The notes under the pieces were generated by a model. The model ran no database searches, was not told where the DNA came from, and was given only the letters and a program-made list of their open reading frames with translations. A stretch of DNA of 64,000 bases from IMG/VR virus record IMGVR_UViG_3300030329_004888, positions 5,508 through 69,507 of that record; one strand, written 5' to 3'. Position 1 is the stretch's first letter. The number at the start of each line of letters is the position of its first letter. Both the position numbers and the translations under genes were made by a program. Below are positions 1 to 64,000 of this stretch, piece by piece. This DNA comes from a virus.

Positions 1-2653
1 TTCCACCTCTACGATCGACCCCTCGGTTCCCGAAATACCTATCAGTAGGACGATTCGGATCCCTCCAGTAGTCGTCTGCGCTGCCCATTCTTGGACCGTA
101 GATTTCTTCCAATCTAAGCAGCAGGGCTTCTTTTTCTTCGGGGTCTAAGTCGCTTTTTTCGATCTCTAACTCCTGCGATACCCGGTTGGCCTCCTGCTCG
201 TAGGAGGTGACGTCTTCGCCAAATTGCTGGCCACGCCCCGCTAAAGTTTGACGACCATCATATCTTCCGGTCAGGCCCGCTTCAGTGGCGCCTCGAGCTA
301 CCCGTTGTGTTTCGAGATCGTCTTCCATCCGTGTTCGCGCCATCGTGTCTTCGGTGCCCAGTCTCCCTAATCGGTCCGCCTCGCCAAATTCTCGCTGGAG
401 CGTTTTAGTTGGCCCACCGGGACCGACGAGACTACCTGTTAGCTCAGCCCGAGTGAAATCTTCGCCCTGGCGAGCTTGGCGGATACTCTCCTCAAACATC
501 TCCCGCTGCGTTGGCGCCGTCTGTGTTAGCTGACGCGCTAACGTCCGGTCTGCAACATTCTGTTGGAGGTCGGCCGCGTCAAACTGGAGCCCGGCTTGCG
601 CTAACCGCGCCGGTAGTGTGGCTGCTCCACGCAATGACCCGGTCAGCTCAGACTCGCGGAAATCTCTGGCGTCGATACCCTCCTGACGAGTCATGGCGTC
701 GCCGATCGCTTGGCGTTGTAGATCCTGCTCGGCCATCGATATCTGATCGCGGCGCTGCTGGAACGGCATCACATCGCCAATAGCCTCACGGCGCATCTGA
801 CCCTCCATCCCGGCGCGTTGGTCGCGCTGCGATGCTAACCCGGACACATCGCCGATAGCCTGGCGCTCGAGCTCTTGGTTCAGAGATTCGAGGCGATCAC
901 GACGACCTTGATATCCTAATGCGTCGGCGATCGCTTGAGACTGCATGTCGTAGCCTAATGCATCGACGTCGAGCATCTGCTGATCTCGACCGCGTGTTAG
1001 CTCGTTAAAGACATCGGCCGTATCGCCGCCCCGTAATACTCCCAACCGGTTGAGCATTTCACGGCCCTCGTCCATCGATCGTCCATAGCGCTCTTCCACC
1101 CGCGCCCGCTGTGCTGCCATAGCCGGGTTCTCCCCGCCCATCAATCTATTCCTGATAACCTCTTCTGCCGCTCCTGACAGCTCGCTCCCGATAGGCACTG
1201 TTCGCCGCCCGCCTTCCTCGAGTCGGAGCATCGCTGCCCGCTCCGCAGCGTCTAAGCCTTCCGACTCCCCTAAGTAAGAGTCTTGCTGTAAGCGCCGCAG
1301 CGCTTGCGCTTCGCCTTCGTTTGTCAATCCTGATTGGGGATCCAGAAACCTGCCGCCCGTTAACCGATCGGTCAGTCTCTCGCCGATGGCCTGCTCCATC
1401 GCAGACTCTGTGCGCTCTGGCACCGAGACTGCCGTGACATCAGGGAGCGATAGGTTTTCAACTGCTGCTCGGCCCGCCTCCTCTGCCCGCTGTCCCATCA
1501 ATTGCAGGACGTTCTGTTGATTCCCTCGCAGCGCGTCGTCGCTCTGCAAGTCTAAGGCGGCGCCCCTACTAAGCTGCTGGTCGATTTCCGTATTCAGACC
1601 GCTCCCTTGTATGGCTTGGGGACCGGTAATCGTCTCTGCCGCCAGCGGAATATCCCCCGAAGATGCCGCGTTTGAAAATGCAGCCTGCGTTGGATCGCGC
1701 TGATCAATAGCCTCGGTAGACCCGGTCTGAGTCTCTACCGTTGCTTGTTGTTGCCTTAAGAGGTTCTTGCGCTCCTGTTCATCCATCGCAGTTTGAGGAT
1801 CTTTTTTTGGACCCGTAACACTCACTTGGGCCGGGTCAGTAATCCAATGGACCCGCGAGCTGCCAGGGCGGCGCGTGTAGAATCCGCCGTTAGGATCTTC
1901 ATAAACCGGAAACCCTTCGTGCATGCGGCCCGCGACTTTAGATCCGCCACGGTCATCGACGTCTGGCCAGTCTGTCACCGTGCCGTCTCCAGTATCAGCA
2001 GTATCTGTTCCGCCGCCCGCTAACATGGTGTCGATATAATCAGAGCGATCCTGCTGAACCGTGGACACCTGCTGCTTTTCGCCCGCTGCTGCCATTACCG
2101 CTGATGGGTCCAGCTGTGCTCCAGTAGCTAACGTTTTCGGGCCTCCGCTTGCTCCCATTGCTGCCGCCTGAGCTGCCGCTGGAGCTACCGCCCCCACGTT
2201 CCGAGCGGCAGCTCCCATTGCTGCCGCTGGAGTCGGAGGCGCAGGACCGCCGTCTCGATTTCCCGAAGAAACCTGAGTCTTCCCCGACGACGCTGCCTGA
2301 GCTCCCATTGCTGCCGCAGGAGTGGCTGCTCCACGGGCCATCGCTGCCGCTGGATCGACTGCCCCCACGTTCCGAGCTGCCGTTCCCATTGCTGCCGCTG
2401 GATCGACTGCCCCCGCATTCTGGACCACCGCTCCCATTGCTGCTGCCGGGGCCACTGCTTCTGGCGCCAGTCGCTCGCCGATCGCGTCTGCCTTGGACAT
2501 CGTCTCAAACGGCGATGCTTTTTTGGGCGCCGCAGCAGAGCCCTGGGTGAACGGGTTCCCCTTAGCCGCAGTAGAGCCCTGGGTGAACGGGTTCCCCTTA
2601 GCTGTCGGGCGCTTTTTCTTCTTTTTAGCGCTTTGTCCATGCATCATCATCAT
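1..2653 (-). CDS. Large internal virion/DNA-ejection protein (3'-truncated; missing from ORF track)
   Basis: ATG run at 2642-2653 directly after the nozzle gene; same frame reads open in the N-terminal part I translated and at the window edge; contains LNRLGVLRGGD, matching LQSMGALRSGD of the syntenic 37171-40083 protein. Confidence 0.75.
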   Translation of the reverse strand, partial: MMMMHGQSAKKKKKRPTAKGNPFTQGSTAAKGNPFTQGSAAAPKKASPFETMSKADAIGERLAPEAVAPAAAMGAVVQNAGAVDPAAAMGTAARNVGAVDPAAAMARGAATPAAAMGAQAASSGKTQVSSGNRDGGPAPPTPAAAMGAAARNVGAVAPAAAQAAAMGASGGPKTLATGAQLDPSAVMAAAGEKQQVSTVQQDRSDYIDTMLAGGGTDTADTGDGTVTDWPDVDDRGGSKVAGRMHEGFPVYEDPNGGFYTRRPGSSRVHWITDPAQVSVTGPKKDPQTAMDEQERKNLLRQQQATVETQTGSTEAIDQRDPTQAAFSNAASSGDIPLAAETITGPQAIQGSGLNTEIDQQLSRGAALDLQSDDALRGNQQNVLQLMGQRAEEAGRAAVENLSLPDVTAVSVPERTESAMEQAIGERLTDRLTGGRFLDPQSGLTNEGEAQALRRLQQDSYLGESEGLDAAERAAMLRLEEGGRRTVPIGSELSGAAEEVIRNRLMGGENPAMAAQRARVEERYGRSMDEGREMLNRLGVLRGGDTADVFNELTRGRDQQMLDVDALGYDMQSQAIADALGYQGRRDRLESLNQELERQAIGDVSGLASQRDQRAGMEGQMRREAIGDVMPFQQRRDQISMAEQDLQRQAIGDAMTRQEGIDARDFRESELTGSLRGAATLPARLAQAGLQFDAADLQQNVADRTLARQLTQTAPTQREMFEESIRQARQGEDFTRAELTGSLVGPGGPTKTLQREFGEADRLGRLGTEDTMARTRMEDDLETQRVARGATEAGLTGRYDGRQTLAGRGQQFGEDVTSYEQEANRVSQELEIEKSDLDPEEKEALLLRLEEIYGPRMGSADDYWRDPNRPTDRYFGNRGVDRRGG
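2150..2602. repeat. Coding repeats (AAAMG; AKGNPFTQGS x2)
   Basis: ctcccattgctgccgc-type units recur several times; ccctgggtgaacgggttccccttagc at 2541 and 2577. Confidence 0.8.
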
Positions 2654-2655
2654 AA

Positions 2656-4218
2656 TTAAATCATCCCTGCTTTTTGTTTGCGCCGTCGCCCGATCACCTT
2701 GTATTGCAGGTGAGTGCGCCGTACTCTATACGGCTCATTACTATTGTTGTTGGTAAATAACAGCGAGCTATGAGGATCATAGCCACGCAGCTCAAGATCT
2801 TTTGAAACCATCCGCGTAGTACCCAGCTTAGAGGTTCCGAGAGTAAATGAGTCCAATGCTGCGCCTCCTAAAACCGTTTTAAACGTGCCACTATGGACGC
2901 CGACCCCTTGTGACTCTTGGTCGATCGTTATTGTATACTCGCCGAGCGCGTCGAAATAAGTTTTGGCATAGAGCCATCGCAAATCGACATCTGCGCCGTA
3001 AGGGGCCGCGGCCCCCGTCATGAAATACGAATCGTTTTTAGATCCATCGTCGGTATAGAGATTCTCGGGGGCATGATCATACAACACTCCCGTATAACTC
3101 CCCGCATGCGGCTTGCCGTCAATAATAGCAGCACAGTTGCGTTCCAAGTTGGTGCCATTGCGATACGGACCATACCACGCCATACGCGTAGTGCCCGTTG
3201 ACGGGTCTTGGTATAGATGTTTAGTAGACAGCACCATTATGTCATTCATCTTAGTTTTGCCGCTGCCGTAGGTCAGCCAAAACCACACCTCGTCCTCAGT
3301 CGCCCAGTATACCGCAAAACATTGTGACAGCCGGGACGTTACAACATTATCCCAATACCCCTCATCAAGCGCATAGCTGATGCGCTCAATCGTGTCTCCG
3401 CCTGTCCACATGTATATGCCGTCGTCCAGCGGGAACACCTGGACATTGCCTGGCAATACGATTACAGCTCGTCCAGATATAGTTCCGCCGCGCTGAGGGT
3501 TACGAGGATCTGAGCTGGTACGTTGCTGGACCTGATACGGGATTTGACTATTGCCTGTTGGTATCAATGTGTATAACGCGTCTTCGGTGTGGACCGACAA
3601 TGCATTTTGCATCGGGACCAGCGCAGTAATAGGAGCGCCGAAATTGTAGAACGCGGTGCTGCCCCATGTCTCCGGGTCGCCCGCGTCGCTATACCATAGT
3701 CGGTCGCTGTTAGCGTTAGTGTATCCCATCCATACGCGGTTATCCCAGTAGCCAACGTGCTTAGCCGTGGTGAATCTACTGTCTACGTCAAGCGCGGATA
3801 TGTTGCCGCTGCCTGTCCATTTGATTGGCCCGTTGACGCCGTTGGTTAAGACCAACTTGTCAAATGCTCGGACCCACTCAAATGTATTATCATCGCCAGC
3901 TGTAATTGTCACGGTCGATGTCCGGTCTACCCAGCCATCATCAAACTCATAGAATTTTGTGCCCGCAGTGGCAAACACTTTAGCGGCGCCGCCAGGAATT
4001 TGAAATTCGCCGACGCTCGTAAACGTCGGCGGTCCAGAAATCGCCGCCGTGCTTTCGTACTTCGCGGTCCCGTGGCGACGCTCAACTGCCGCCGCCGCAT
4101 TTAACCGCGTGTTCTGCATTTTTTGCAACCCGTTTGCCGTAATGTCTTCTGGGGGGAGGTCATACCGCACCCCTTGTCCCCATGGTCCATACTGCACGGT
4201 TTCAGCGTCAATGGCCAT
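2656..4218 (-). CDS. Tail nozzle / DNA-stabilisation protein (P22 gp10 / T7 gp12-like position)
   Basis: Beta-propeller-like repeats (YWDNRVW, DRLWYSDAGDPETW); follows the adaptor; clear homolog at 40086-41702. Confidence 0.7.
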   Translation of the reverse strand: MAIDAETVQYGPWGQGVRYDLPPEDITANGLQKMQNTRLNAAAAVERRHGTAKYESTAAISGPPTFTSVGEFQIPGGAAKVFATAGTKFYEFDDGWVDRTSTVTITAGDDNTFEWVRAFDKLVLTNGVNGPIKWTGSGNISALDVDSRFTTAKHVGYWDNRVWMGYTNANSDRLWYSDAGDPETWGSTAFYNFGAPITALVPMQNALSVHTEDALYTLIPTGNSQIPYQVQQRTSSDPRNPQRGGTISGRAVIVLPGNVQVFPLDDGIYMWTGGDTIERISYALDEGYWDNVVTSRLSQCFAVYWATEDEVWFWLTYGSGKTKMNDIMVLSTKHLYQDPSTGTTRMAWYGPYRNGTNLERNCAAIIDGKPHAGSYTGVLYDHAPENLYTDDGSKNDSYFMTGAAAPYGADVDLRWLYAKTYFDALGEYTITIDQESQGVGVHSGTFKTVLGGAALDSFTLGTSKLGTTRMVSKDLELRGYDPHSSLLFTNNNSNEPYRVRRTHLQYKVIGRRRKQKAGMI

Positions 4219-5129
4219 TACGATACCGTAACCAACGTGTTGTCAACGATGATCCCAAACGGAGATGTCGCGCCAGACGACACTGATGGATACGATCGAT
4301 TGCCCTGCATACGTAGATTTTGCCGCAGCGCCAACTCGAGGACTCGATTGAGTTCCATCGCTTCTCTCGCGCTCCCTGCGTCGTCACCCTTTTCTGCCAA
4401 GTATAACTTAGAGGCGCCGTAGACACACGCGCCCTCGAGTATTTGCGGGAGGCCCAACGTCAAAAACTCACTGCCGTCATTGGCCGCAGCCCATGACGTT
4501 AGCGCTATGCGATACCGGACGCGGATAACTTCCGCCGTGGTATCAGGGGCCCTCCATAACTCTATCGTCGGATATCCAGTGTGCACATCGACGCCGCCAA
4601 CCAATACTGTCTCGACGGTCCCGGTCTCGGTCTGGTCCTCCGTTAGGAGATCATACGAGTCTGGGCCAACAACTACTAATGCGCGTTCGTTGGTTTCATC
4701 GTAAAATGAATGCCATGCTCCTACCGCTGACTCGATCGGCGTATAGATTCGTGTTGCAGCGGAGCTTTTAAATGTTGCAGAGCCCGCCCCCGAAATAGAC
4801 ACTGTCTCATCAGCCGTAAACGACCCGGTCGGACTGTATACGTATATCTCGTTTTTGACGTCGCTATAGCCGTCGATCTTAGCGGTCTTGCCAGACGACA
4901 GGCCCGTTATGGTTGCGTCCGCCGCAAACGCTCCTGTGTCACTGGTTACCGTTAGCGTATCGGTCGTGCGGAACGTGGCGGTGCGGTCCAACCACCACCA
5001 GTCAACCAGGTTTGAAACCTCCACCGCTGTCAGGTTGATGTAGTTCCGCGCCTCGTTTTTGAAATCAACATTGGTAGTGTCCAACCCAACACGGTTGAGC
5101 ACCATCGTGATCGCTTCGCCCAGTGTCAT
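4218..5129 (-). CDS. Head-tail adaptor / tail tubular protein A-like
   Basis: MTLGEAITMVLNRVG start, WWWL motif, C-terminal VYGASKLYLAEKGDD; homolog at 41702-42640. Confidence 0.65.
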   Translation of the reverse strand: MTLGEAITMVLNRVGLDTTNVDFKNEARNYINLTAVEVSNLVDWWWLDRTATFRTTDTLTVTSDTGAFAADATITGLSSGKTAKIDGYSDVKNEIYVYSPTGSFTADETVSISGAGSATFKSSAATRIYTPIESAVGAWHSFYDETNERALVVVGPDSYDLLTEDQTETGTVETVLVGGVDVHTGYPTIELWRAPDTTAEVIRVRYRIALTSWAAANDGSEFLTLGLPQILEGACVYGASKLYLAEKGDDAGSAREAMELNRVLELALRQNLRMQGNRSYPSVSSGATSPFGIIVDNTLVTVS

Positions 5130-5371
5130 ATCAGATTCGCCCAGCTTCCGTTTTCGTATGCTTGCATTTTGTTTGTTGTCGTGTTGTAGATCATCATACC
5201 GTTAGCTGCCGTCACTGCGTCGCGCTCAGTCGATGTCAGGTTGGCAACGCGAATCGTTGACCCGATGGCCAACGTCTCTACGTCCGCCGCTCCCAACAAC
5301 GCGGTCTGTCCAAAAAAGTTGGCCGCGTTGGACTGCCCTTGGACAGTTTCATCGCGTCGCGCTATCGTCAA
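5126..5371 (-). CDS. Small virion protein with tail-fibre-type motif
   Basis: LTSTERDA..ANGMMIYNTTTNKMQAYENGSW; homolog at 42637-42912. Confidence 0.7.
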   Translation of the reverse strand: MTIARRDETVQGQSNAANFFGQTALLGAADVETLAIGSTIRVANLTSTERDAVTAANGMMIYNTTTNKMQAYENGSWANLI

Positions 5372-6048
5372 TTTACCATGCCCTCATCACCCACGGTGAA
5401 CGAGTCGGCCATAATGCCGTAGCGCACGTTGGTATCCATTTTCTTTCCTTGGCTTTTCAAATCGAGCCAGTGTTTGTAATGCTCCGTCTTGACCGGCCTG
5501 CCGTCGGGCCCCTTGAGGGCTTTCTCCGGATCAGGGCATGTAGTAACGCCATCCGCAGCGACAAACTTTGGAATGTAACTGGGCGGCAGAGGTTCAAATC
5601 CTTTTTGGTGCGCAACTTCGACCCCTCCGTGTACGCGGAGCGCTGGTTCCGCGCTATAATTTCGAGTATAGTCTCCGCTCGGCGGCACTGCTGCTGATTC
5701 CAAGTCAAGCATTTTCCGCAGGTCAGGAGACTGTGATGCGGTGTGGACTACTTGACGGACAATGTCCGGATCTTTAAGTGCTGCTATCAGCGCTTCTTTG
5801 TTGATCGCTGCCGGTGCTGTCGGAACCGGGGCCTGTAGCTCTGGAGCAATATCGACTAATGGTTTCAATTTCGATTGTTCTTCGTTGATGGCTTCAATTT
5901 TTTTAACTGCGTCCGGGTCCGGCTCGCCGGTCAGTGTGCCTATCGGCTGGCCCATTGCGTCATACTGCTCATTTGTTGCCAAGATATTTTCTCCCCTGAA
6001 AAAAGATATGAGCAGCGAGGCATACGCCCCGCCGCTCATCTCCGTCAC
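5368..6048 (-). CDS. Hypothetical protein
   Basis: Coupled in the late operon; syntenic with 42899-43351. Confidence 0.65.
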   Translation of the reverse strand: MTEMSGGAYASLLISFFRGENILATNEQYDAMGQPIGTLTGEPDPDAVKKIEAINEEQSKLKPLVDIAPELQAPVPTAPAAINKEALIAALKDPDIVRQVVHTASQSPDLRKMLDLESAAVPPSGDYTRNYSAEPALRVHGGVEVAHQKGFEPLPPSYIPKFVAADGVTTCPDPEKALKGPDGRPVKTEHYKHWLDLKSQGKKMDTNVRYGIMADSFTVGDEGMVN

Positions 6049-6051
6049 TGC

Positions 6052-6564
6052 TTAGTTGCTAACATTGTTGACAAACGGATGTGAAATGCTGGATAAAGTC
6101 GTGCCGCCTGAATCAGCAGCTACCGCATACGCTCCATAAATCACATCGCCAGCCACCACAGTATCATCTACGCTACTGGCCGTAGCAGTCAGATACAGCT
6201 GCGCCCCGTCAGCCACATCGCCGCTGGTAATGGCGACCGTTCCGTCAATGCAATACCAACCATACTGGTTGGCCACATTGGCGCTCATCGCCACTCCGCA
6301 CTTGCCTACAGCATTCGCTGAAGGTCGCGACGTAGTGAACCCAGCTCCGTCGATCAGAACCAAGTTCCCCGCTGCCGTACTGGCAACGCCTTTACAATAC
6401 ACAAACGTCATGTCTCCATACCCCGGATTGTCAATGTCCCTCGCTTGTACGCGAGATCCCAATGGGACAGGAAGTGGAGTAACGTCTGGGTCAGCAATTG
6501 CGGCCGACGTCTCCGCAATTCCTTGATCAAAAGTTGTTTCCCCGACCATCTTCCAAGTAGCCAT
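6052..6564 (-). CDS. Capsid decoration/cement-like protein
   Basis: Directly after MCP; Gly/Ala-rich, NQYGWYCIDG motif; homolog at 43415-44215. Confidence 0.6.
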   Translation of the reverse strand: MATWKMVGETTFDQGIAETSAAIADPDVTPLPVPLGSRVQARDIDNPGYGDMTFVYCKGVASTAAGNLVLIDGAGFTTSRPSANAVGKCGVAMSANVANQYGWYCIDGTVAITSGDVADGAQLYLTATASSVDDTVVAGDVIYGAYAVAADSGGTTLSSISHPFVNNVSN

Positions 6565-6583
6565 GTGTTATCTCCTTCTTGGC

Positions 6584-7570
6584 TTAGACGCCGGTTATAG
6601 CTGTCGCAACACCGTTGCGACGCCTGTTGTTTGTGATTAGCTGAAGTCCGGCAACTAAATAACTCAGCTGCGCCAGCTGTCCGTTAGATTGCAATGAGAC
6701 AAACGGCGTCTTTTTGAAGTTCGCTTGTTTCATTACTCGAAGTTGGACAGAGCTCGTATCAATATGATAGCTGTGCAACGATGCTATATCATTGTCAGCG
6801 ATGACCTCAGCGCCCATATACCTCGGGAACTCTGGGCCTTTGATCCCTTCTACGTTCGAGAGCGATACCTCTCCATATCCGGTGCTTGCCAGCGCGGTGC
6901 GGTAGGCAGAGGCGATCGAATATGTAGTGACGATAGCATCGTTTTTCCCGCCCTGAATCCTGCACAGATCCATGATGGCGTTCCACGCAACGAACCCGTC
7001 AAAAATGGTATCTACAGTGTCCGTCGTAAACGTCTTTGACGCGGTATACCGCTGGCTTTCCCAGCTCGCGGTATCAGCTGGATCTATACCTCCTAATACC
7101 TCATTGGCAGAATCAGCCATGATGTCTTGGTAACCGATAATCGATTTTCCCGATTGATTACCGCAAATATCTTCGTTAATGGATTTCAGCAACGAGTTCA
7201 TTGCGTTGTCGCCAAGACCTTTCAGAAGATCGAAAACTTGTTCTTTGCCGCTGTTCTGCCAGTTGGTCGTGTCGTCCAGGACAATAGGCACTGCATAGTA
7301 TCGCCTGTTGTAATGGGCTGACTGAAATGGATCTGCCGGAGTTTTTGAAAGCGGATCGTATCCGTCAAAAGCCTCCGCGGTTGAAGATCCGGTCTCGATG
7401 ATGACGGAAATTTCTTTGCCGCCACCGTCCATGATCTGCATGCCGCGCCGCCGATGAAACCCAAGTGCGTTATAGGCTTCAAAGACGTTGTCGATTTGTT
7501 TTGAATCGACCGTGCGCCGGGTGCTCGACCACCTCGAATCCCAGACCTCGCTGGTCGTCTGTCCTGCCAT
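6584..7570 (-). CDS. Major capsid protein
   Basis: 328 aa after scaffold; GGKEI, FDGYDPL, QLITNNRRRNG motifs shared with 44274-45272. Confidence 0.85.
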   Translation of the reverse strand: MAGQTTSEVWDSRWSSTRRTVDSKQIDNVFEAYNALGFHRRRGMQIMDGGGKEISVIIETGSSTAEAFDGYDPLSKTPADPFQSAHYNRRYYAVPIVLDDTTNWQNSGKEQVFDLLKGLGDNAMNSLLKSINEDICGNQSGKSIIGYQDIMADSANEVLGGIDPADTASWESQRYTASKTFTTDTVDTIFDGFVAWNAIMDLCRIQGGKNDAIVTTYSIASAYRTALASTGYGEVSLSNVEGIKGPEFPRYMGAEVIADNDIASLHSYHIDTSSVQLRVMKQANFKKTPFVSLQSNGQLAQLSYLVAGLQLITNNRRRNGVATAITGV

Positions 7571-7602
7571 TTTAGATATCTTCCTTCAAATTTCTCCCCC
7601 GC

Positions 7603-8532
7603 TTACAGCGTCGCTTCGATCTCGGCGAGCGCCTGCTCTCGCGTAATACTACCGCCCGATTCCGCTATCCCAGGCGAACCGCTCTGTGCCGCAGAGGCTC
7701 GCTTTGCAGTGTTTCGCAAAGCTCGCTGTTGCCCGATCGCGTCTGTGCGATCATTAAGTGCTCGCTTAGTAGCCAGCGCCATTGCTTCTGCTACGGTATA
7801 CGCTTCTCCCGTATCGGCGTTCTCCGTGCGAGTCAACGCTGCGGCCACGGCGCGGTGCCGTGGATCCCAATCGTCTACCCGTCCGAATATCGCCTCGGCC
7901 GCTTCGATCTGGGCGTTAGCCTCCGATCGAGCTTGAGCTGTCTGTGCCTGAGTGACTCGGTCAACCGCTGCTGTCGTAGTTGATAGCTGGTCCAAATACG
8001 GTTTATACGGTTCGAGCGCTGCCGCCACTTGGCGATCAGCGATCTCTTGCGCCCGCTCTTGGACAAGCTGGTCCACTACGGTCAGGCCCCGCGCCTCGTC
8101 TGGCCCTAACTGAGCTGCCAGCGCTTGTACGGGGTCTACCTGCTGCGATTGGTTATACTGCGCGAGATGCTGGTTGAGCTGCTGTTGCGTTTCGAGCACT
8201 GCTGCACGATCTGCCTCAACGGCTCGACGCTCATCTGCAACGGCCTGCATCTTGCGGGTGTAATCCGCGAGGCGCAATCCGTCTCCGGAACCATCTGCTC
8301 CCGCTGCTGCCGGGGAAGTAGTGGTTGTGGTTTGTGCTGCCGTGTTGTTTCCTGCGTCTGTGCCGTTACCAGCGGCGGTCGGGTGCTCTGCACTTTGCGA
8401 GTCAGAATCGGACGTCCCAATATCAGGCTCGACAAACCCCATCCCCATTTCGTTGACGGATTCGGAACCCGAGTCGTTACTGTCCGGTTGCTCTGAGCTG
8501 GCCGCAGAATCGACGGCGACGGCTTCGGTCAT
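7603..8532 (-). CDS. Scaffolding protein
   Basis: Acidic N-terminus, ADYTRKMQAVA motif, coiled coil, upstream of MCP. Confidence 0.75.
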   Translation of the reverse strand: MTEAVAVDSAASSEQPDSNDSGSESVNEMGMGFVEPDIGTSDSDSQSAEHPTAAGNGTDAGNNTAAQTTTTTSPAAAGADGSGDGLRLADYTRKMQAVADERRAVEADRAAVLETQQQLNQHLAQYNQSQQVDPVQALAAQLGPDEARGLTVVDQLVQERAQEIADRQVAAALEPYKPYLDQLSTTTAAVDRVTQAQTAQARSEANAQIEAAEAIFGRVDDWDPRHRAVAAALTRTENADTGEAYTVAEAMALATKRALNDRTDAIGQQRALRNTAKRASAAQSGSPGIAESGGSITREQALAEIEATL

Positions 8533-8563
8533 GATACTCTCCTACCTGTTTAGCGGGACCAGG

Positions 8564-54053: not shown

Positions 54054-54113
54054 CTTTCCAACTCTCCAATTTTTGGTGACACCATTGTCACTACCAATAA
54101 AGATACTACAAAC

Positions 54114-54398: not shown

Positions 54399-54436
54399 TG
54401 ATGAGAATACCCTCATCACGACTTAGGAGAGTCAAC

Positions 54437-54805: not shown

Positions 54806-54807
54806 CC

Positions 54808-55742: not shown

Positions 55743-55754
55743 CAGGAGATCATT

Positions 55755-55919: not shown

Positions 55920-56016
55920 GCAATAGCCGATAACGCCCCTTCGGGGGCGTCTGGTTGGGACTGATCGCCCAATCACTGACGAGGCAGATCCTCGCACACA
56001 ACAGGAGAGTTGAGAG

Positions 56017-56322: not shown

Positions 56323-56651
56323 TGCACGATCCAGTAGAATCAGCACTCAATTACGAGTCAGACAAACAGGCAGCATGGGAGAGGGAATTGATGGAGCGGC
56401 ACGGCGTCGAACGCACCGGTGAGGAATGGCAGGGCCTCACGGGAGCAGAGGTGCGCCAGTGCCGCCAGCATATGCAGTTGACGGCATCGGCGTTGGCAGA
56501 TCAGTGCGGCACCAAGTGGAGGACTGTCTGGAATTGGGAGAAAAACGGCGTGAAAGGCCCTGCCGCCAAGCTCATCGAACTATTGGTGAGGTTGCACGAT
56601 CTGAAGCTTTCTTATACATTGGACGATACCGACTCTCCTAAGACGAGGTAA
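56322..56651 (+). CDS. XRE-type HTH protein
   Basis: LTASALADQCGTKWRTVWNWEKNG. Confidence 0.75.
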   Translation: MHDPVESALNYESDKQAAWERELMERHGVERTGEEWQGLTGAEVRQCRQHMQLTASALADQCGTKWRTVWNWEKNGVKGPAAKLIELLVRLHDLKLSYTLDDTDSPKTR

Positions 56652-56670
56652 TTCTCGTTAGTTGGTATAT

Positions 56671-56709
56671 ACCCCCCATCCTCGCATAACGCAGGGATGG
56701 GGGGTTTTG
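56671..56709 (+). terminator. Rho-independent terminator between convergent genes
   Basis: accccccatcc...ggatggggggttttg. Confidence 0.7.
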
Positions 56710-57228
56710 TTATGCCTCCAGTAATTCCTGCAATGCCCGTTGGTCCTCATCGCGCCAAACCTGTCCCACCCTGTCGGTCGTGTAGGCGATTGCCGCCTGC
56801 GGCCCACGTTTATGCCGTGTTCGTTTCTTGGATTCGGGTAGCTCGTCCAGAGTAGACGACGTCAATAGTTTTTTGATTGCTGTCCATGATACGTTTTTCC
56901 CAATCGACTGGGCATCGAGCCACGCATCCACACCTCCAGACGCATTAGCCTCCAGATAAAACGCACGGGCATAATACAGGTCACGGACAGATCGATCCAG
57001 ATCCATAGCCAGTTTTCCCATCAACGAGCCGGTGCCCCGTTGCCCCAGCCCGGCATACATGGGATGGCTGACGATGGCCTCGCCGATTTCATAGCGGCAA
57101 TGGATGGCCTCCATATGGGCGGCAAATCCCCGTTCGTAGATGATAGCGAGAATGCCCTGAAAAAGCTGTTCATACTCATTGCCGAAATCAGCTGGCTGTA
57201 AATCAGCTTTTGGAATGGCCAGAGACAT
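56710..57228 (-). CDS. DUF1016-N (YhcG N-terminal)-like DNA-binding protein
   Basis: YEIGEAI...LMGKLAMDL..RDLYYARAFY...VSWTAIKKLL. Confidence 0.55.
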   Translation of the reverse strand: MSLAIPKADLQPADFGNEYEQLFQGILAIIYERGFAAHMEAIHCRYEIGEAIVSHPMYAGLGQRGTGSLMGKLAMDLDRSVRDLYYARAFYLEANASGGVDAWLDAQSIGKNVSWTAIKKLLTSSTLDELPESKKRTRHKRGPQAAIAYTTDRVGQVWRDEDQRALQELLEA

Positions 57229-57577
57229 GGGAAAATTCCTTTCGATTGTTTGATATTATTGTGACGGTGAAAACGCGAGGCTCATCCGTCATAAATAAAA
57301 AATTGGTCCGGGAAAAAACAATTCTTTGGCGAGAATTTCCCGGACCGATTCTAATTCGACCTTTTGCGAGGTTGAATTAACTCTTGAATCCTAAGAAAAA
57401 TTCCGGCCAGGCGCCAATTAAATCTGCACCTCCGCCGATCGGCATCTCGACGAAACCGACCCACATCGTGACGATGATATAAAATAAAAAAGGCCGGCAG
57501 ACAAAAGCTGTCCACCGACCCGTGAGGAGTTGGTCACAATGGCAATCGTGAGATGATTGGCCTGTCCGAATATAGGG

Positions 57578-57811
57578 CTATCGATCCGATTGCGCTATCA
57601 AGCACGATGCTGCACAGTTCAGCGCACCGGCCAAGGCAGCCAGGGTCGCCGAAGAAAACGGTTTGCCGTGCAGAATTTTGCTTAAATGAGAAACATCCAA
57701 CTGGGCAACATCAGCCAGTTCAGCCTGGCTCTCAATCCCCAGTTGAGCCATGCGATCCAGCACCACAGCACGATTGATGGTGATTAATATTTTCATTGAC
57801 CCCGTAGTCAT
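57578..57811 (-). CDS. Cro/CI-type HTH repressor
   Basis: SQAELADVAQLDVSHLSKILHG...LAGALNC; counterpart of 20544-20807. Confidence 0.8.
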   Translation of the reverse strand: MTTGSMKILITINRAVVLDRMAQLGIESQAELADVAQLDVSHLSKILHGKPFSSATLAALAGALNCAASCLIAQSDR

Positions 57812-57824
57812 ATATCCCTATTAT
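57796..57824 (+). promoter_or_regulatory. Sigma70-type promoter
   Basis: TTGACC-17-TATTAT, overlapping the repressor start. Confidence 0.65.
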
Positions 57825-57859
57825 ACCCATAAGCACCTCACAACACAAGGAGAGTAGGA

Positions 57860-58507
57860 ATGCCAGACACTATCGAATTACATGACGGGAGCGTTCAGGA
57901 TTTAACGTTTAGGTACGGCAACTGTGCCCGGATGACGAGCCGCAGCGGCACCGGGTTCTATTATCGGTTTGAATTGGAGGAGGGCAGGCTCAACGCCAAT
58001 GCCCACATCGTCAAAGCGATTGCGGAAAATTGGCCCGGACGAGGGGGATCGATGCGAATCGAACGCCACTCTGCTGCCTCGTACACGATCAGCAACGTTA
58101 ATCCCAGTGAAAATGCACAGTACGCCCTCGATATGTGCGAATGGAACAACAACACGCGGAAGTACGATATAATCCCTTTCGACTTGGGGACGGCGGGGAC
58201 GCCAGAGACGGCAACTCCTCAACACAGCCCTCCGTCAACAGCAACGTCGCCGTCCCCCACTCCAGCCACAATCGAAAGCAACACCCAGTGGGACGACATC
58301 ACCGACCTGATGAGGTTCTGCCTGCTGGAGGCCAAAAGAATGTGGGAGAGGACGCAGGTCGAAGCACAGGGGGATCACGCCAAAGCGATTCAGGCGCTGG
58401 CCGTGAGTCTGTACATCGACGCGCGGAAACTGGGCATCACAGTACCGACAGACGACCGCAACGAGTTGATCGCCCAAGAGGTGGACGACGAGGAACTGCC
58501 GTTTTAA
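57860..58507 (+). CDS. SSB-like protein
   Basis: Acidic DDEELPF tail; same slot as 21946-22656. Confidence 0.5.
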   Translation: MPDTIELHDGSVQDLTFRYGNCARMTSRSGTGFYYRFELEEGRLNANAHIVKAIAENWPGRGGSMRIERHSAASYTISNVNPSENAQYALDMCEWNNNTRKYDIIPFDLGTAGTPETATPQHSPPSTATSPSPTPATIESNTQWDDITDLMRFCLLEAKRMWERTQVEAQGDHAKAIQALAVSLYIDARKLGITVPTDDRNELIAQEVDDEELPF

Positions 58508-58740
58508 CGGAATCCTACTACTATCGCGTACCCAGCCAGTCAAGAGACCGTGTCTATCTGATTCTCCAAGAGATTGCAGACGATGCGGTCTCTTGGCACT
58601 GCGGGTGCGAGTTCGCAACATTCCAGAAAAAAGACAGTGCACGGGTGTGCAGACATGTAGATGCTGTCCGTCAGGCCTTCCGACAGGGGGTGGCTGGCGG
58701 CACCGAAAACAATCCCACGTTAGTGGGCATACAGGAGTGA
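58507..58740 (+). CDS. SWIM zinc-finger protein (no canonical start)
   Basis: RVPSQS..Y...WHCGC...CRHV. Confidence 0.55.
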   Translation, partial: TESYYYRVPSQSRDRVYLILQEIADDAVSWHCGCEFATFQKKDSARVCRHVDAVRQAFRQGVAGGTENNPTLVGIQE

Positions 58741-58741
58741 T

Positions 58742-59026
58742 ATGGACACAGACGAGGAATACACCGACGACATCGATAAGGCCCGTGAGGTGGCTGGCAA
58801 GATTGTGGCCACCGCCGATTACTGGATCGCCATTGGATGCACGGTCACAGAAGAAGGAGGCGAACTCCAGTTGGTAGCGGAATTTTCCGAGAATGGAGAC
58901 GCGGAGGCACTGGCACACGCACTGGCTGAACTCCTGCGACGGCGCAGTGATCTGAGGAATTATCTGCTAAAGATGATGGTGTTGTCCGCACGCCCCCTTG
59001 GAGTGGATGACACATGGAAAAATTAG
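58742..59026 (+). CDS. Hypothetical protein
   Basis: aggag RBS. Confidence 0.6.
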   Translation: MDTDEEYTDDIDKAREVAGKIVATADYWIAIGCTVTEEGGELQLVAEFSENGDAEALAHALAELLRRRSDLRNYLLKMMVLSARPLGVDDTWKN

Positions 59027-59388
59027 TTGTGCACGGCATGCTGGTCTCCCTCAACGAGGCCATTGCCAGTGCTAAAAAACACTGGTCTGCCTATGCCAGC
59101 ATCAAGAAGCGATTGACCAATCAGGTATGCACTCTGGCGATGGCGCAGCGGATCGAACCGTTTGACACGCCTGTGGTTATCCGGATGACTCTCTATCCGC
59201 ACAACCGCAAAACCGATCCAGACAACCTGCTGATCAACAGCAAATGGGTGCTGGATGGATTGGTAGCCGCAGGAGTGCTGGCCGATGACGGACCCAAGCA
59301 GATCGCAGGGCTGGAATTCAAATTCGACATGGATCGGGTCAACCCCAGAGTAGTCGTTGAGATCGAGGAGGCCGATGAACCATCCTAA
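59014..59388 (+). CDS. RusA-like resolvase
   Basis: SLNE, DPDNL, KWVLDGLVAAGVLADD, NPRV. Confidence 0.85.
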   Translation: MEKLVVHGMLVSLNEAIASAKKHWSAYASIKKRLTNQVCTLAMAQRIEPFDTPVVIRMTLYPHNRKTDPDNLLINSKWVLDGLVAAGVLADDGPKQIAGLEFKFDMDRVNPRVVVEIEEADEPS

Positions 59389-59675
59389 GCGGATCCTTTC
59401 ACGGTTTTGCGTACGGTGCAAGGTCAACGAGATCATCCACACATCATTCAGGGTGCCGTGGCTGTTCGTGCAAAATTTGCGGACAGGCGACAGCATGCAT
59501 GTAGTGTGGGACGGAGCGAATGTGCCGGTGCGGAAGGAAAGAGATTTTGGCGTATGCGTCAGACGAGTTACAGAGAAGGGGTGGCGGCAACTGGGTCAGA
59601 TCGATGACTGGATGTTTTCGATAACCAGTTTCCCTGCTCTGTGGTATAATAACATAGACAAGGAGGCGAATCAAC

Positions 59676-60005
59676 ATGAAGAAACCAGAGGGATTGACAC
59701 GCCAGGAGAAGGCCAAGGTCAAGAGTCGGAACAAAAACGTGATCGCGAAGTGGGAAGCCAAGTTGGAGGCGCTGGAGCAGCGTGACCCCAGAACGAGGCC
59801 ATTGCATGCGCTGAAGTTTTTTCCTACGCACGGGGCAACTGCGGCCAACATAGCTGGCATCACCGGTCAGCCCGAAGCAGTCGTCAAAAGCACGTTGGAT
59901 CATCTGGCGTCCAAGGGATTTTTGTATCGTAGGGTCAGGCCAGATCCGGAAGCCGTGACTACCCAGCGACGCAAGACACGCATTGTCTATCAATGTCTGG
60001 ATTAG
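59676..60005 (+). CDS. Winged-HTH-like protein
   Basis: aaggagg RBS, upstream TGGTATAAT; TAANIAGITG...LDHLASKG. Confidence 0.6.
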   Translation: MKKPEGLTRQEKAKVKSRNKNVIAKWEAKLEALEQRDPRTRPLHALKFFPTHGATAANIAGITGQPEAVVKSTLDHLASKGFLYRRVRPDPEAVTTQRRKTRIVYQCLD

Positions 60006-60766
60006 ATCTAATTAATGAAGCCATAGACAAGCACAAGTTAAAAACTGTGTTTGCGTTGTTCAGTGGAGGACATGATTCTCTGTGTGCAACGCATGTTGCC
60101 ATGCAGCATCCTGCGGTTACTACGGCAGTCCATATAAATACAGGGATCGGGATAGAAAAGACGCGCCAATTTGTTCGCAATACGTGCAAAAACTTCGATT
60201 GGAAGCTGAATGAGTACCATCCACCAAAGGCGTATAGTGAATTGGTGCAGACATATGGATTTCCTGGCCCTGGACAGCATCAGGCTATGTATATTCAGCT
60301 TAAAGAGCGGTGCTTACGTCAAGTCTTGCGAGAACATAAGACGTATAGACGTGAGGCTATCGGGTTTATTACTGGTGTGCGGTCACAGGAGTCAACTCGA
60401 CGCATGGGTCATGTGAAGCCCATTCAAAAAGACGGAAGTCGCATCTGGATAGCCTGTATACATGATTGGGACAGCAAAGACAAGAATGCATACATGGAGA
60501 AACACAACCTGCCTCGCAATGAAGTTGTAGATTTGCTCCATATGTCAGGGGAATGTTTGTGTGGTGCTTTTGCAAAGCCAGGGGAACGAGAAGAGATTAA
60601 GCTCTGGTTTCCTGAAGTGTATAAAGAAATAGAAGAACTTGAAGAGTCCGTGGCAACAACGGGGAAGCCATGTCGTTGGGGTGTGCAGCCAACAATAAAT
60701 CCGTATCAAACTACCATGAATTTGCCATTGTGCACTTCGTGTATTGCTAAAAATGAGACCCCTTGA
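59993..60766 (+). CDS. PAPS-reductase-family protein
   Basis: FSGGHDS, NTG, TGVRSQES.RR, SGECLCGAFA. Confidence 0.85.
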   Translation: MSGLDLINEAIDKHKLKTVFALFSGGHDSLCATHVAMQHPAVTTAVHINTGIGIEKTRQFVRNTCKNFDWKLNEYHPPKAYSELVQTYGFPGPGQHQAMYIQLKERCLRQVLREHKTYRREAIGFITGVRSQESTRRMGHVKPIQKDGSRIWIACIHDWDSKDKNAYMEKHNLPRNEVVDLLHMSGECLCGAFAKPGEREEIKLWFPEVYKEIEELEESVATTGKPCRWGVQPTINPYQTTMNLPLCTSCIAKNETP

Positions 60767-61706
60767 CGGCCTGACCTACGGCAGTATCTGCTCTGGCATA
60801 GAGGCGGCAAGCGCCGCATGGAAAGAACTGGATTGGCAACCATCATGGTTTGCCGAGGTCGATCCGTTCTGTTGCGAGGTGCTTGCCCATCACTATCCGG
60901 ACATACCCAACCTGATGGACATCACAGCAAAGGAGTTTCTTGATGACGCAACACCAGTTGACGTTCTTATCGGAGGCACTCCCTGTCAAGCCTTCTCCGT
61001 TGCCGGAAGACGACGCGGATTCGATGACGACAGAGGAAATCTCACGCTACGATTTCTGGACGTGGTGGGCCACATACGCCCCCGTTGGGTCGTCTGGGAA
61101 AATGTCCCCGGCGTCCTGTCAATTGACAAAGGACGGACGTTTGGAACCATCCTCGCAAAAATGGCAGGACATGGGTATGGGTGGGCCTACCGAATCCTGG
61201 ACGCTCAGTACTTCGGAGTGCCCCAACGACGCCGTCGAATCTTCCTTGTCGGACATTCTGGAGGAGAGTGGCAGCGTTGCTCCGAAGTACTCGCTGTCGC
61301 CCAAAGCATGTCAGGGCATCCTCCGACGCGCAAAGCGTCGCAAGAAACCGTTGCCGGTGGCACTGGAAAAAGCACTAAAACACACAGCCACTGGGCGGTG
61401 ACCTATGACATGCGCGGCAATGGCAATGGCAAGACGGTGCCCCCTATCATAGGAGATCACGCCAATCGTCCCACCGACTATACGCCTGTAGTTGTAGCAC
61501 GGCCCGGCATGCAAGTACGAAGGCTGACCCCCGTAGAATGCGAACGATTGCAGGGATTCCCAGACAACTACACATTAATCGACAGAAAAGGCAAGCCAGC
61601 AGCCGATAGCCCACGGTATCGGGCAATAGGCAATTCGTTTGCCGTGCCGGTAGTGCGGTGGATCGGCCAGCGCATTGCACACATTGACAAACTGCGAGGA
61701 CAGTAA
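60753..61706 (+). CDS. DNA cytosine-5 methyltransferase
   Basis: CSGIE, GGTPCQAFS, ENVPG, QRRRRIF, RRLTPVECERLQGFP, IGNS. Confidence 0.92.
   Translation: MRPLDGLTYGSICSGIEAASAAWKELDWQPSWFAEVDPFCCEVLAHHYPDIPNLMDITAKEFLDDATPVDVLIGGTPCQAFSVAGRRRGFDDDRGNLTLRFLDVVGHIRPRWVVWENVPGVLSIDKGRTFGTILAKMAGHGYGWAYRILDAQYFGVPQRRRRIFLVGHSGGEWQRCSEVLAVAQSMSGHPPTRKASQETVAGGTGKSTKTHSHWAVTYDMRGNGNGKTVPPIIGDHANRPTDYTPVVVARPGMQVRRLTPVECERLQGFPDNYTLIDRKGKPAADSPRYRAIGNSFAVPVVRWIGQRIAHIDKLRGQ
60940..61401 (+). CDS. Alternative-frame ORF nested in the MTase (M.EcoHK31I beta-like)
   Basis: aaggag upstream; SSLSDILE..PKYSLSPKACQGILRRAKRRKKPLP. Confidence 0.55.
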   Translation: MMTQHQLTFLSEALPVKPSPLPEDDADSMTTEEISRYDFWTWWATYAPVGSSGKMSPASCQLTKDGRLEPSSQKWQDMGMGGPTESWTLSTSECPNDAVESSLSDILEESGSVAPKYSLSPKACQGILRRAKRRKKPLPVALEKALKHTATGR

Positions 61707-62146
61707 TGAAAAAAGAATGGAATGAAGACACATGGGAGCGGAGTCGATGGCCCAACTTTTCCTTTGCCGAAATGAAATGCAGCCACAGTGGACTGTGCTT
61801 CATGGACGAGAGCGCCTTAGACAAATTGCAGGAGATGCGTAACCAGATCGGGCCCCTGTGGGTTACCTCTGCCTACAGAGACAAGACGCATCCAATCGAA
61901 GCACGTAAGACGGATGCGGCGGGGAATCCTCGTCCAGGGGCACATTTCACCGGCAAGGCGTTTGATATCTCCTGCTCTGGAGAAAAGGCCCTACAGGTCG
62001 TTGCCGCGGCATTGTCGGTGCACTTCACCGGACTGGGAATTAAGCAGCACGGGGCCCATGCCAAGCGGTTCATCCATATCGACATGATCAGTGAAGATGA
62101 CAATTTCCACGTTCCACGCCCCACTATCTGGTCGTATGGAAGCTGA
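61706..62146 (+). CDS. Peptidase M15-family endolysin
   Basis: NFSFAEMKC, VTSAYR, GAHFTGKAFDI, FIHID. Confidence 0.85.
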   Translation: MKKEWNEDTWERSRWPNFSFAEMKCSHSGLCFMDESALDKLQEMRNQIGPLWVTSAYRDKTHPIEARKTDAAGNPRPGAHFTGKAFDISCSGEKALQVVAAALSVHFTGLGIKQHGAHAKRFIHIDMISEDDNFHVPRPTIWSYGS

Positions 62147-62807
62147 AAGTCTGTTTGGAGACAGCAACCGGTGCTATCACTGGATGTTGTCTCAGTATCG
62201 GGCGGGGCGCAATATGGAAAAAATAAAGCCCCACTACTACCTGTTCGATGGATCGCATAAGGTCGTTCTGGATCCACGCCGCCAGAAGTGGCTCTGGAAG
62301 CAGGCAGAACGGCGCAATGAACAGACATCGCGCAACCGCAAGTATCAACAGCGCAAACGCGCAGATGGCCTTACTGACGTACAGTGCCACTATCTGGGAA
62401 TCAAGGGGGAGGCAGCGGTTCTACTGGCGTACGGATGGCCCAAGGAACCCCTGAAAACCCTGAAGGCTGGAGGCGTTGGTATTATGGGGGATGCGATTAC
62501 CCCGTCCGGCAAAACCGTACAGATTAAATTGCCCCAAGGACGGAATCGACAATTCGCCCTGCCTACCCATCGCCAGCATCTGGAAACCGATTACGGCATA
62601 CTGGTCTGGCCCGATGAATTCACCACGCCAGTTGACCCGTCTGAGGCCAATGAAACGCTACAGGTGATCGGGTGGTGTTCCAAGGAACAGTTTCAGGCAG
62701 ATTCCGATATACGGACCTTTTCCAACGGCAGCCAGCATTTTCTGCCATGGAAGCTCATGCAAGCCGCCAGAGACTTTCCGTCAGATGATAGCCAAAATAG
62801 CCAATGA
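62136..62807 (+). CDS. Hypothetical, possibly PD-(D/E)XK-like (start uncertain)
   Basis: GIKGEAAV...GD...VQIK...VIGW. Confidence 0.5.
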   Translation: MEAESLFGDSNRCYHWMLSQYRAGRNMEKIKPHYYLFDGSHKVVLDPRRQKWLWKQAERRNEQTSRNRKYQQRKRADGLTDVQCHYLGIKGEAAVLLAYGWPKEPLKTLKAGGVGIMGDAITPSGKTVQIKLPQGRNRQFALPTHRQHLETDYGILVWPDEFTTPVDPSEANETLQVIGWCSKEQFQADSDIRTFSNGSQHFLPWKLMQAARDFPSDDSQNSQ

Positions 62808-62845
62808 GAATTTTCCCGGTAATTTTGGGTGAGGCCTATTTGGTT

Positions 62846-63010
62846 TTAGCTGCTGCCACCTTTTGAATCTACGTACGCCTGACCCAGAAGATACACGGCC
62901 AGCACTATTGCCTGAGCGATTGGCTCTCCCTCGAGCAAGGCAAACCCCCCACCGGCCACCGCCACCTTCTTGCTGACCACACTCTTGATACGTTCTGTAA
63001 GAAAATCCAT
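62846..63010 (-). CDS. Putative holin (54 aa; missing from ORF track)
   Basis: MDFLTERIKSVVSKK...YLLGQAYVD; aaggag RBS; homolog of 27496-27687. Confidence 0.65.
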   Translation of the reverse strand: MDFLTERIKSVVSKKVAVAGGGFALLEGEPIAQAIVLAVYLLGQAYVDSKGGSS

Positions 63011-63036
63011 TTGTTTCTCCTTATTATGCTATCAGG

Positions 63037-63321
63037 TTAAGCGTCGGACGCTCCTTGCTCTTCCTCCGCAGTCTGCACAGACAACATGGGATCTCCGTTG
63101 ACACCGGCACCAATTGGCTTCGGCAATAACACATCCCTGTAGACCATCAGTTGGCCGGTCAGACGCTGACAAAGAGCGTCATTGTTCACCAGGTGTTGAC
63201 GCCGCTGTATAATCTGTGACTCCAACTGCTCAACGATCCTCTGTACGTCTTCTGTGGCTGGCATTTCTGTCATGTCGATCCTTTCTCTTTTTTCTACTGG
63301 GAAGTCTTCCCACATGAACAT
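63037..63321 (-). CDS. Coiled-coil hypothetical protein
   Basis: Late-strand ORF; start possibly 63273. Confidence 0.55.
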   Translation of the reverse strand: MFMWEDFPVEKRERIDMTEMPATEDVQRIVEQLESQIIQRRQHLVNNDALCQRLTGQLMVYRDVLLPKPIGAGVNGDPMLSVQTAEEEQGASDA

Positions 63322-63476
63322 CTCTTCTCTGTACTCGTTCCCATGTTTTGCGCTTGTGTTTTCGCTGCCTGAACTTCCTGTACCAAGTCAAACAGCGCGT
63401 CCTTAACGACAGCAGGTACAGCCTCTGTTGTAGTGCATAGCTTTAACGCCTCATTTAATTTTTCAGTGTATATCAT
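63294..63476 (-). CDS. Hypothetical protein
   Basis: ATGA-coupled to 63473-63901. Confidence 0.5.
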   Translation of the reverse strand: MIYTEKLNEALKLCTTTEAVPAVVKDALFDLVQEVQAAKTQAQNMGTSTEKRCSCGKTSQ

Positions 63477-63901
63477 TTTCCACCTTCATAGATCCTGCGT
63501 AATATAACAATAGCCATGGTTATACCCCACATTATCGATCCGCTAACTGCTTCGTGTTGCCAAAAACTTTGCCACTGACTGCCTCCGGGCCAGCCGTGAC
63601 TTATCTCCCAGATCTGATACAGTATTACCATGAGAGTGGCCGCTGTAGTGGAAGCTATTGTTGTCTGTTTGCTTTCCTTCTTGGCCTGCTCCTCACGAGT
63701 AAGAAGCTCTTCAACTTCTCTCTGTGTAGCCTTAACCTCTTTACGCTTTACTTGTAATTCTTTTCGATCTGAACTACCAACACTAAACGCTAATTTACGC
63801 TCTTGCTGGCACTCCTTTAACGCCCTCAAGCATCTGACATACTCCTCCTTAACCTCGCCAAAAGAAGAGCATGAATCCGGGTTCTTAAACCTCCGTGCCA
63901 T
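63473..63901 (-). CDS. Coiled-coil plus two-TM membrane protein
   Basis: Homolog of 27797-28222. Confidence 0.7.
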   Translation of the reverse strand: MARRFKNPDSCSSFGEVKEEYVRCLRALKECQQERKLAFSVGSSDRKELQVKRKEVKATQREVEELLTREEQAKKESKQTTIASTTAATLMVILYQIWEISHGWPGGSQWQSFWQHEAVSGSIMWGITMAIVILRRIYEGGK

Positions 63902-63902
63902 A

Positions 63903-64000
63903 TCACATTGAGATCAGGAGTTGCCATACCGTCGCTACGCCAATTATGGCTATCACGCCTCCTGAGATTAGTAGTACCTTTTTAATCATCTACCTAATGC
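63903..64000. repeat. Exact direct repeat, copy 2 (runs off the window); includes the 28-aa gene at 63903-63989
   Basis: Identical to 28224-28321. Confidence 0.97.

Follow-up and report, generated by a model that had tools for sequence, protein, structure and literature searches.

An IMG/VR Virus Record That Is Very Probably an Assembly Chimera of Two Marine Phages Sharing a Tail-Fibre Tip Module

Introduction

Plasmid and phage cointegrates form by one crossover in a segment that both partners share. In addition, the C-terminal, receptor-binding modules of tail fibres swap among unrelated phages, as is known for the fibres of P2, Mu, lambda and the T-even phages. Both processes come into play when a 64,000-nucleotide (nt) stretch of viral DNA is considered, here called the window, which comprises bases 5508–69507 of the 69,507-nt IMG/VR record IMGVR_UViG_3300030329_004888 and thus ends where the record ends. 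The window holds two complete phage gene sets, further referred to as A and B, and an 856-nt segment that they share, S. The record is listed in IMG/VR as linear with a completeness of 100. It is very probably an assembly chimera of two co-occurring marine phages of one family-level lineage, A measuring ~34.4 kilobases (kb) and B ~35.7 kb. The order A-S-B-S is the exact product expected from a crossover between two circles, but contig depth does not show the equal copy number of the halves that a cointegrate would have.

Artificial joins have been described as well. According to the COBRA paper, assemblers break where different genomes have a region in common and leave ends of maxK or maxK-1 there, and assembly also produces chimeric joins (COBRA, PMC10914622). 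The present record resembles these cases in that the contig ends in a shared region, the length of the end is about maxK or maxK-1 (98 nt here) and coverage differs between the parts. It differs from the breaks in that the assembler or a later merging step would have joined the genomes, and in that the record start is not a simple k-1 overhang. Likewise, the CheckV paper reports 290 IMG/VR contigs of more than twice the expected length, in which the same genome is repeated 2.0–6.8 times and which are judged probable assembly artefacts (CheckV, PMC8116208). With about twice the length expected for its lineage, the record is similar to these contigs. Whereas k-mer frequency catches such concatemers, the two halves of the record are at 30–52% protein identity and repeats make up less than 1% of its length, and a k-mer concatemer check would probably miss it. 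A concatemer of one genome was considered and rejected, as self-BLAST shows that the sequence is not repeated.

Materials and Methods

Open reading frames (ORFs) were predicted with a simple ORF caller, which gave 91 ORFs in the window, and A-B pairs were identified by all-against-all BLASTP. Genes were named via PHROGs and Pfam; the Pfam scan took in 60 window ORFs and one fragment of 186 amino acids (aa) from the fibre tip. The window's own record was excluded from searches in IMG/VR and in metagenomes. A search of public sequencing runs listed 24 marine or aquatic runs, 20 of which contain some of a 10-kb stretch that spans the junction; three were marked as possible sources. Four runs, all in the form of Logan contigs, were compared over window positions 18300–38299; each contig has one depth figure, a k-mer mean and not a value from mapped reads.

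Extent of the Shared Segment and Divergence of the Two Genomes

An earlier reading of the window, made from the sequence only, had drawn attention to an exact repeat, 28224–28321 = 63903–64000. Alignment bears out this repeat of 98 nt, and through the record start it could be extended to the 856 nt of S. The repeat stops at 98 nt because the record ends there, and its true length is possibly greater. A repeat finder gives a wider, inexact pair (28200–28321 versus 63879–64000), and the final k letters of the record become unique only at k=99. An exact repeat of 98 nt in 64 kb cannot arise by chance.

The other end of the record leads to the same place. In a self-BLAST, record positions 1–215 match record positions 34424–34638 (window 28917–29131) at 94%. 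The differences between the record start and the internal copy are found at positions 15, 164 and 174 and become dense from 193 onward, positions 16–163 being identical; the first 163 nt of the record therefore equal window 28917–29079 except for one letter. As the record start and the record end both match S, both ends lie inside one shared segment. S accordingly spans 28224..29079 on the minus strand, with its left edge defined by the exact repeat and its right edge by the record start. The record end corresponds to S positions 1–98 and forms a second, truncated copy (63903..64000, minus strand) that holds the left 98 nt and terminates with the record, and the record start corresponds to S positions 694–856 with one letter off. 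This sole differing letter, at record position 15 (window 28931), reflects strain variation or else an error close to the tip of the contig; the internal letter is the one found in a metagenome contig (L103) and in a contig of a possible source run (X3), both discussed below.

At either edge of S, nucleotide identity drops from 100% to ~50% within 100 nt. Measured in windows of 50 columns, it changes from 1.0 over 0.88 to 0.54 at the right edge and from 1.0 over 0.98 and 0.62 to 0.52 at the left edge. Beyond matches of 215 nt and 107 nt, self-BLAST returned short internal repeats only. The guanine-plus-cytosine (GC) content is 54.5% in A, 51.1% in B and 48.8% in S.

Outside S, the two genomes are strongly diverged. 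The sequence-only reading had described two syntenic virion operons with clearly homologous products, and 12 homologous A-B protein pairs at 30–52% identity confirm this; both operons lie on the minus strand. Identity is 43% for the large terminase TerL, 34% for the portal, 33% for the capsid and 30–46% for six more virion and cassette proteins. The same reading had also mentioned two sets of early genes. This is only loosely true: the early regions contain only two homologous pairs (35% and 41%) and their gene contents differ; no B protein matches the D5_N/DUF5906 helicase of A. To call the two phages sisters was too strong, since each is closer to outside loci than the 33% that separates the A and B capsids. 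The A capsid has 14 IMG/VR loci at 64–73% identity, and for the B capsid the best 80 of 259 matching IMG/VR stretches are at 56–82%.

Evidence for an Assembly Chimera

Two circles that share S would give rise to a figure-eight in a de Bruijn or overlap graph. The assembler would have walked through A, S and B and halted on re-entering S, and it is proposed that both record ends lie in S because the walk stopped at that point. B would close on itself through S. The unique part of A measures 33,567 nt, of which 28,223 nt are window 1..28223 and the other 5,344 nt precede the window, reaching back to record position 164; the unique part of B is 29080..63902 (34,823 nt). The predicted circles are 34,423 nt for A plus S and 35,679 nt for B plus S, which sum to 70,102 nt. 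The 98 nt at the record end could be taken for the k-1 of a k=99 assembly, but this idea does not fit the record start, which holds 163 nt of S with one letter off, and it is kept as a remark only.

Firstly, the chimera is supported by depth in run X3, a possible source of the record. In this run A is represented by a 9,664-nt contig over 18590–28253 with a depth of 12.5, S by a contig over 28224–29035 with a depth of 16.4, and B by six contigs within 29050–38292 with depths of 6.69, 5.8, 5.9, 7.2, 5.64 and 4.79. In per-contig means, A is ~2.1 times as deep as B and S is near the sum of both. A comparison of depth over A, B and the repeat had been proposed by the sequence-only reading, which named different depths of A and B as counting against an exclusive fusion, and this is the pattern observed. 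Contigs in X3 have loose ends at 28218 and 29108 that carry the sequence of the B cassette end (record 69374) and of the A fibre (record 194), respectively, so all four edges of the figure-eight are present in this run.

Secondly, the two genomes behave differently as populations. In X3, A is assembled in one piece of 9.7 kb and B in pieces of 0.8–2.3 kb. In a large protein collection, exact A proteins occur on 22–30 contigs and exact B proteins on 7–14, with an 81-aa protein encoded in S on 39. When proteins are clustered at 90%, the clusters have 8, 17 and 31 members for B versus 2, 5 and 10 for A. B is microdiverse and A is nearly clonal.

Thirdly, a 40-nt word of central S sequence is present in exactly one metagenome contig, L103, of 6,991 nt. 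It consists of 3,614 nt from the cassette side of A without mismatches, an identical S and 2,684 nt of the A fibre, in which record position 15 is the single mismatch. L103 ends far from S and is unbroken at both edges, so S was no branch point in that assembly. The search for A-A next to A-B configurations, also put forward by the sequence-only reading, thus yielded A-A whole across S. In run X7, from a separate study, a contig over 28107–28998 likewise crosses the A/S edge unbranched. B is sparsely covered in this run (0–1.8 per bin, versus 2–4.9 for A), which was discarded as evidence since missing contig cover proves nothing.

Several observations weigh against this interpretation. The longest contig common to the exact proteins of A and of B measures 70,311 nt, which is near the predicted A+B circle, and A-type fibres are found on public assembly contigs of 70,007, 70,311, 62,251 and 58,784 nt. 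The figure-eight graph is identical for two circles and for a cointegrate, and contig paths, L103 included, are weak evidence by themselves. The depths in X3 allow free A plus some A-B dimers. The full-length identity of the S copy of B is supported solely at the two edges and by the summed depth, and no contig with a B-B configuration across S was found.

A-type fibres also occur on contigs of 34,925 and 35,500 nt, and B variants on one of 40,105 nt. The long contigs with A and B proteins therefore indicate that the join recurs in other assemblies, alongside contigs of single-genome size. Since the same graph arises wherever A and B co-occur, such recurrence is expected from an artefact too. 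Contigs of 52.8–55.9 kb with variants of a 142-aa protein of B were not counted as A+B joins, because a 52,817-nt IMG/VR contig of similar size belongs to a distant larger phage with a capsid only 28% identical.

Alternative Explanations

The alternative that survives best is a real A-B cointegrate, a heterodimer circle or mixed concatemer made by a single homologous crossover in S and existing beside free A and B. The identity of S implies that A and B meet and recombine in one host, and contigs of ~58–70 kb recur, one of them (the 70,311-nt contig) with exact proteins of both phages. A cointegrate is nevertheless considered unlikely, and what weight it retains is mainly due to the recurrence of the join. 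As 856 nt is beyond the reach of a short read, the link can have had no evidence behind it in any assembly. With A at about twice the depth of B in X3, each B copy could be linked to an A copy, but the excess of A does not give the equal halves and doubled repeat of a cointegrate; a minority form is compatible with these figures. Unbranched contigs from A into S are present, and the microdiversity of B versus the near-clonality of A argues against a cointegrate as well. Moreover, relatives measure 33.6–39 kb, and judging from these sizes, 70 kb of DNA would exceed what a capsid of this lineage is expected to take.

It is very unlikely that the recurrent ~58–70-kb contigs themselves correspond to a real A-B heterodimer, either a cointegrate or a mixed replicative concatemer, produced by crossover in S in co-infected cells. 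If this were true, the heterodimer would be a physical intermediate of tail-fibre module exchange between phages with 30–50% protein identity, caught in nature.

Of the two readings that had been offered from the sequence, a real fusion and an assembler path through two genomes with an identical module, it is the latter that agrees with the depths, the A-A contig and the relatives. The fusion as a real molecule is unsupported, given the unequal depth, the A-A contig and the relatives of single-genome size. The shared identical module stands regardless of the fusion, as had been anticipated.

Two prophages in tandem at one attachment site, with the repeat as att site, are highly improbable. A relative of B is integrated, together with a tyrosine integrase, in a metagenome-assembled genome (MAG) that has a second TerL match, which is what makes the idea worth considering. 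The record carries no host DNA or host genes at either end, the Pfam scan of the window ORFs and the tip fragment gave no integrase, and there is no unassigned early ORF longer than 273 aa. The 856-nt repeat is coding, with a fibre tip and two genes, and does not resemble an att core, and L103 links the two ends of A directly. Lastly, a genuine ~70-kb phage with two diverged copies of every virion gene would account for the recurrence of ~70-kb contigs and for the completeness of 100, but is scarcely credible in view of the unequal depth, the A-A contig, the single module in five of five long relatives and in the prophage, and the fact that A and B are each closer to outside relatives than to one another.

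The Shared Segment as a Tail-Fibre Tip Module

With the assembly chimera as the preferred explanation of the record, S itself requires a biological one. On the minus strand, S encodes the C-terminal ~170 aa of the tail fibre, an 81-aa protein and a 28-aa hydrophobic peptide. The B tail fibre (28571..31753, minus strand; 1,060 aa) belongs to PHROG tail-fibre families and has a C1q-like tip at ~28592–28906, inside S. Against a cut-off of 23.7 bits, the Pfam C1q family scores 26.8 on the isolated tip and 23.3 when the full protein is scanned, and two of eight aligned members match. A sequence search of the PDB with the tip gave chance-level matches only (E at least 0.15). The 81-aa gene (28307..28552, minus strand) is linked to the fibre tip and is without functional assignment; its product has no family match in PHROGs or Pfam and nothing usable in the protein atlas. 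A relative with 52% identity follows the fibre in a complete related genome, G001. The gene for the 28-aa peptide (28224..28310, minus strand), identified by translation, has a hydropathy maximum of 2.06 over 19 residues. The 81-aa gene and the peptide gene overlap in an ATGA that contains the stop of the former and the start of the latter; the peptide stop is 1 nt ahead of the start of the gene for 141 aa (A) or 142 aa (B) that opens the next cassette.

Three shafts that cannot be aligned with each other carry the same tip, namely those of the A fibre (611 aa), the B fibre (1,060 aa) and a third fibre, P0004 (847 aa), whose tip is 91% identical and has a precomputed C1q assignment. The A and B fibres have 52% identity over 185 aa. 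Full-length A fibres measure 611 aa, or 603 aa via an alternative start codon, and the part encoded by S is invariant in six of six variants. S is genuine biology and looks like an ordinary exchange of tail-fibre tips of a well-known kind. The C1q-like tip and the 81-aa and 28-aa genes would have been swapped recently, through recombination, homologous or illegitimate, in a host infected by both phages. The tip presumably binds a receptor, and A and B may share this receptor and a host.

The exchange in the fibres of P2, Mu, lambda and the T-even phages offers a parallel. The similarities are the abrupt step from 100% to ~50% identity within the fibre gene, the presence of one tip on three shafts and the small downstream gene that travels along. 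Differences are that the hosts are uncultured and marine, that the tip is C1q-like, and that the module additionally contains a gene for a 28-aa membrane peptide and stops precisely where the next cassette starts.

A tip plus 81-aa-like gene akin to S was found in one A-clade relative (G001) and in none of three B-clade relatives (G002, G005 and G006). S is in line with the adjacent genes of both phages in GC and in GC at third codon positions (GC3). For the direction of transfer, there are too few relatives to decide. A search for other carriers of S in IMG/VR gave 30 pattern matches to the 81-aa protein, none of which was confirmed, and no stretch with the 40-nt word.

Related Phages and Host

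The five longest related IMG/VR records, of 33,606–38,955 nt and 96–100% complete, have one capsid match each. G001 has a 46-nt terminal repeat and shows the order A-like fibre shaft, S-like tip (38%), 81-aa-like gene (52%) and convergent primase gene, which is the same arrangement as in L103. As the closure of B onto itself predicts, the fibre gene of both G002 and G005 is followed by a relative of the 142-aa gene.

A B-clade prophage is present in G006 (contig C2, ~3,423,500–3,463,300; loci L105–L107). It is a single copy of ~40 kb with a capsid 71% and a portal 54% identical to those of B, in a host contig of 4.14 Mb from a MAG titled Candidatus Latescibacterota. It is bounded by MreB and MiaA at one end and, at the other, by a tyrosine integrase, an SLH/TPR protein and the Der GTPase. 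A helix-turn-helix (HTH) regulator and an ERF recombinase are encoded as well, and the second TerL match mentioned above lies on contig C1 at 1,582,310. This prophage is a first hint of a host for the lineage.

More distant is a phage represented by three IMG/VR contigs of 12,376, 52,817 and 24,854 nt (L109–L111), which is the one with the 28% identical capsid. It has a mosaic cassette, in which a peptide-gene region that is 84% identical to the left end of S at the DNA level is followed by B-type 142-aa (84%) and 60-aa (70%) genes and by A-type 76-aa (51%) and DUF5675 (55%) genes. Given this mixture of A and B types and the occurrence of one tip on three shafts, the region from the fibre tip to the cassette is a mosaic hot spot in these marine phages.

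Among 50,697 GenBank phage records, no match was obtained for either portal, for the fibre tip, or for 20 kb of A or 20 kb of B. With 259 IMG/VR stretches matching the B capsid, the lineage is an abundant marine one without a match in that set, and a literature search yielded no paper on the lineage or on this record.

Other Features of Genomes A and B

The virion operon of A (2..16405, minus strand), assigned with PHROGs and Pfam and by homology to B, contains the small terminase (15881–16405), TerL (14451–15836), the portal (12331–14454) and the capsid (6584–7570), all on the minus strand, next to tail and internal proteins; the PHROGs and Pfam names also include a virion protein. A 908-aa methyltransferase/DUF7178 protein (Pfam; 9346–12072, minus strand) is encoded within this operon, between the portal and the head genes, and has no counterpart in B. 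In-frame repeats occur at window 2151–2469 within a 996-aa gene for a large tail or internal protein, with five copies of 40 nt and three copies of 60 nt.

The early and replication genes of A (16416..25178) lie on the plus strand and were assigned with Pfam. They include a Prim-Pol (22685–23344; E = 2.7e-35) and the D5_N/DUF5906 helicase (23172–25178), both on the plus strand, whose ORFs overlap by 173 nt in different frames. Either these are two genes, or a frameshift yields a single primase-helicase. As the X3 contig shows no insertion or deletion here, an error confined to this record cannot account for the change of frame. At 17118–17170 and 17488–17540, in the gap that separates the divergent operons of A, lie two 92% identical copies of a near-perfect palindrome of 44 nt whose loop contains a run of T and a run of A. 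They look like two-way terminators or operator-like sites.

Adjoining S, A has a cassette of small genes on the minus strand (26695..28222), a putative lysis or membrane module. Its 141-aa gene (27797–28222) is 41% identical to the 142-aa gene of B; a 76-aa gene (27496–27726) and a DUF5675 gene (Pfam; 27056–27499) are further members on the same strand. The B counterpart (62846..63901, minus strand), recognized by homology to the A cassette, reads out of S in a B-B arrangement and holds the 142-aa gene (63473–63901, minus strand), genes for 60 and 94 aa, and a 54-aa gene (62846–63010, minus strand). The lysis role that the sequence-only reading had given to these genes is putative; the 141/142-aa products have no family match in PHROGs or Pfam, and only the 28-aa peptide is clearly hydrophobic.

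The virion operon of B (28571..50898, minus strand), assigned with Pfam and by homology to A and to single-genome relatives, includes TerL (48719–50143; Pfam Terminase_6N/6C) and, by homology, the portal (46615–48717) and the capsid (44274–45272), each on the minus strand, as well as tail proteins and the fibre. Early and accessory genes, named with Pfam, occupy 50585..62807 and comprise GP88 (52867–53610), RusA (59014–59388), a PAPS reductase (59993–60766), a C5 methylase (60744–61706) and an M15 peptidase (61706–62146).

Variation was also seen. A 970-aa gene of B for a large tail or internal protein has an in-frame repeat of two 99-nt tandem copies (window 38187–38384), at which the X3 contig steps back by 99 nt; this points to copy-number variation. 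Run X8 (2021) holds variants of both A and B that are 2–5% diverged. Its contigs omit 228 nt and 73 nt (window regions 29981–30210 and 36596–36670), and one joint, weakly anchored with 22 letters on one side, omits 5,204 nt of B tail genes (31161–36366). These gaps suggest variants of the tail genes.

Implications

An IMG/VR record with a completeness of 100 thus probably consists of two genomes, whose halves are too diverged for a concatemer check based on k-mers, and similar joins seem to be present in other assemblies. Chimeric records of this type make genomes seem larger than they are, obscure species-level clusters and host predictions, and can pass for large phages in which modules are duplicated.

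As a real molecule the fusion most likely does not exist, and the biology that is left after the artefact is removed is a fibre-tip exchange of an already known kind. An identical module of 856 nt in phages that are otherwise 30–50% identical would imply a shared host and a very recent exchange in an uncultured marine lineage, which is a modest but real finding.

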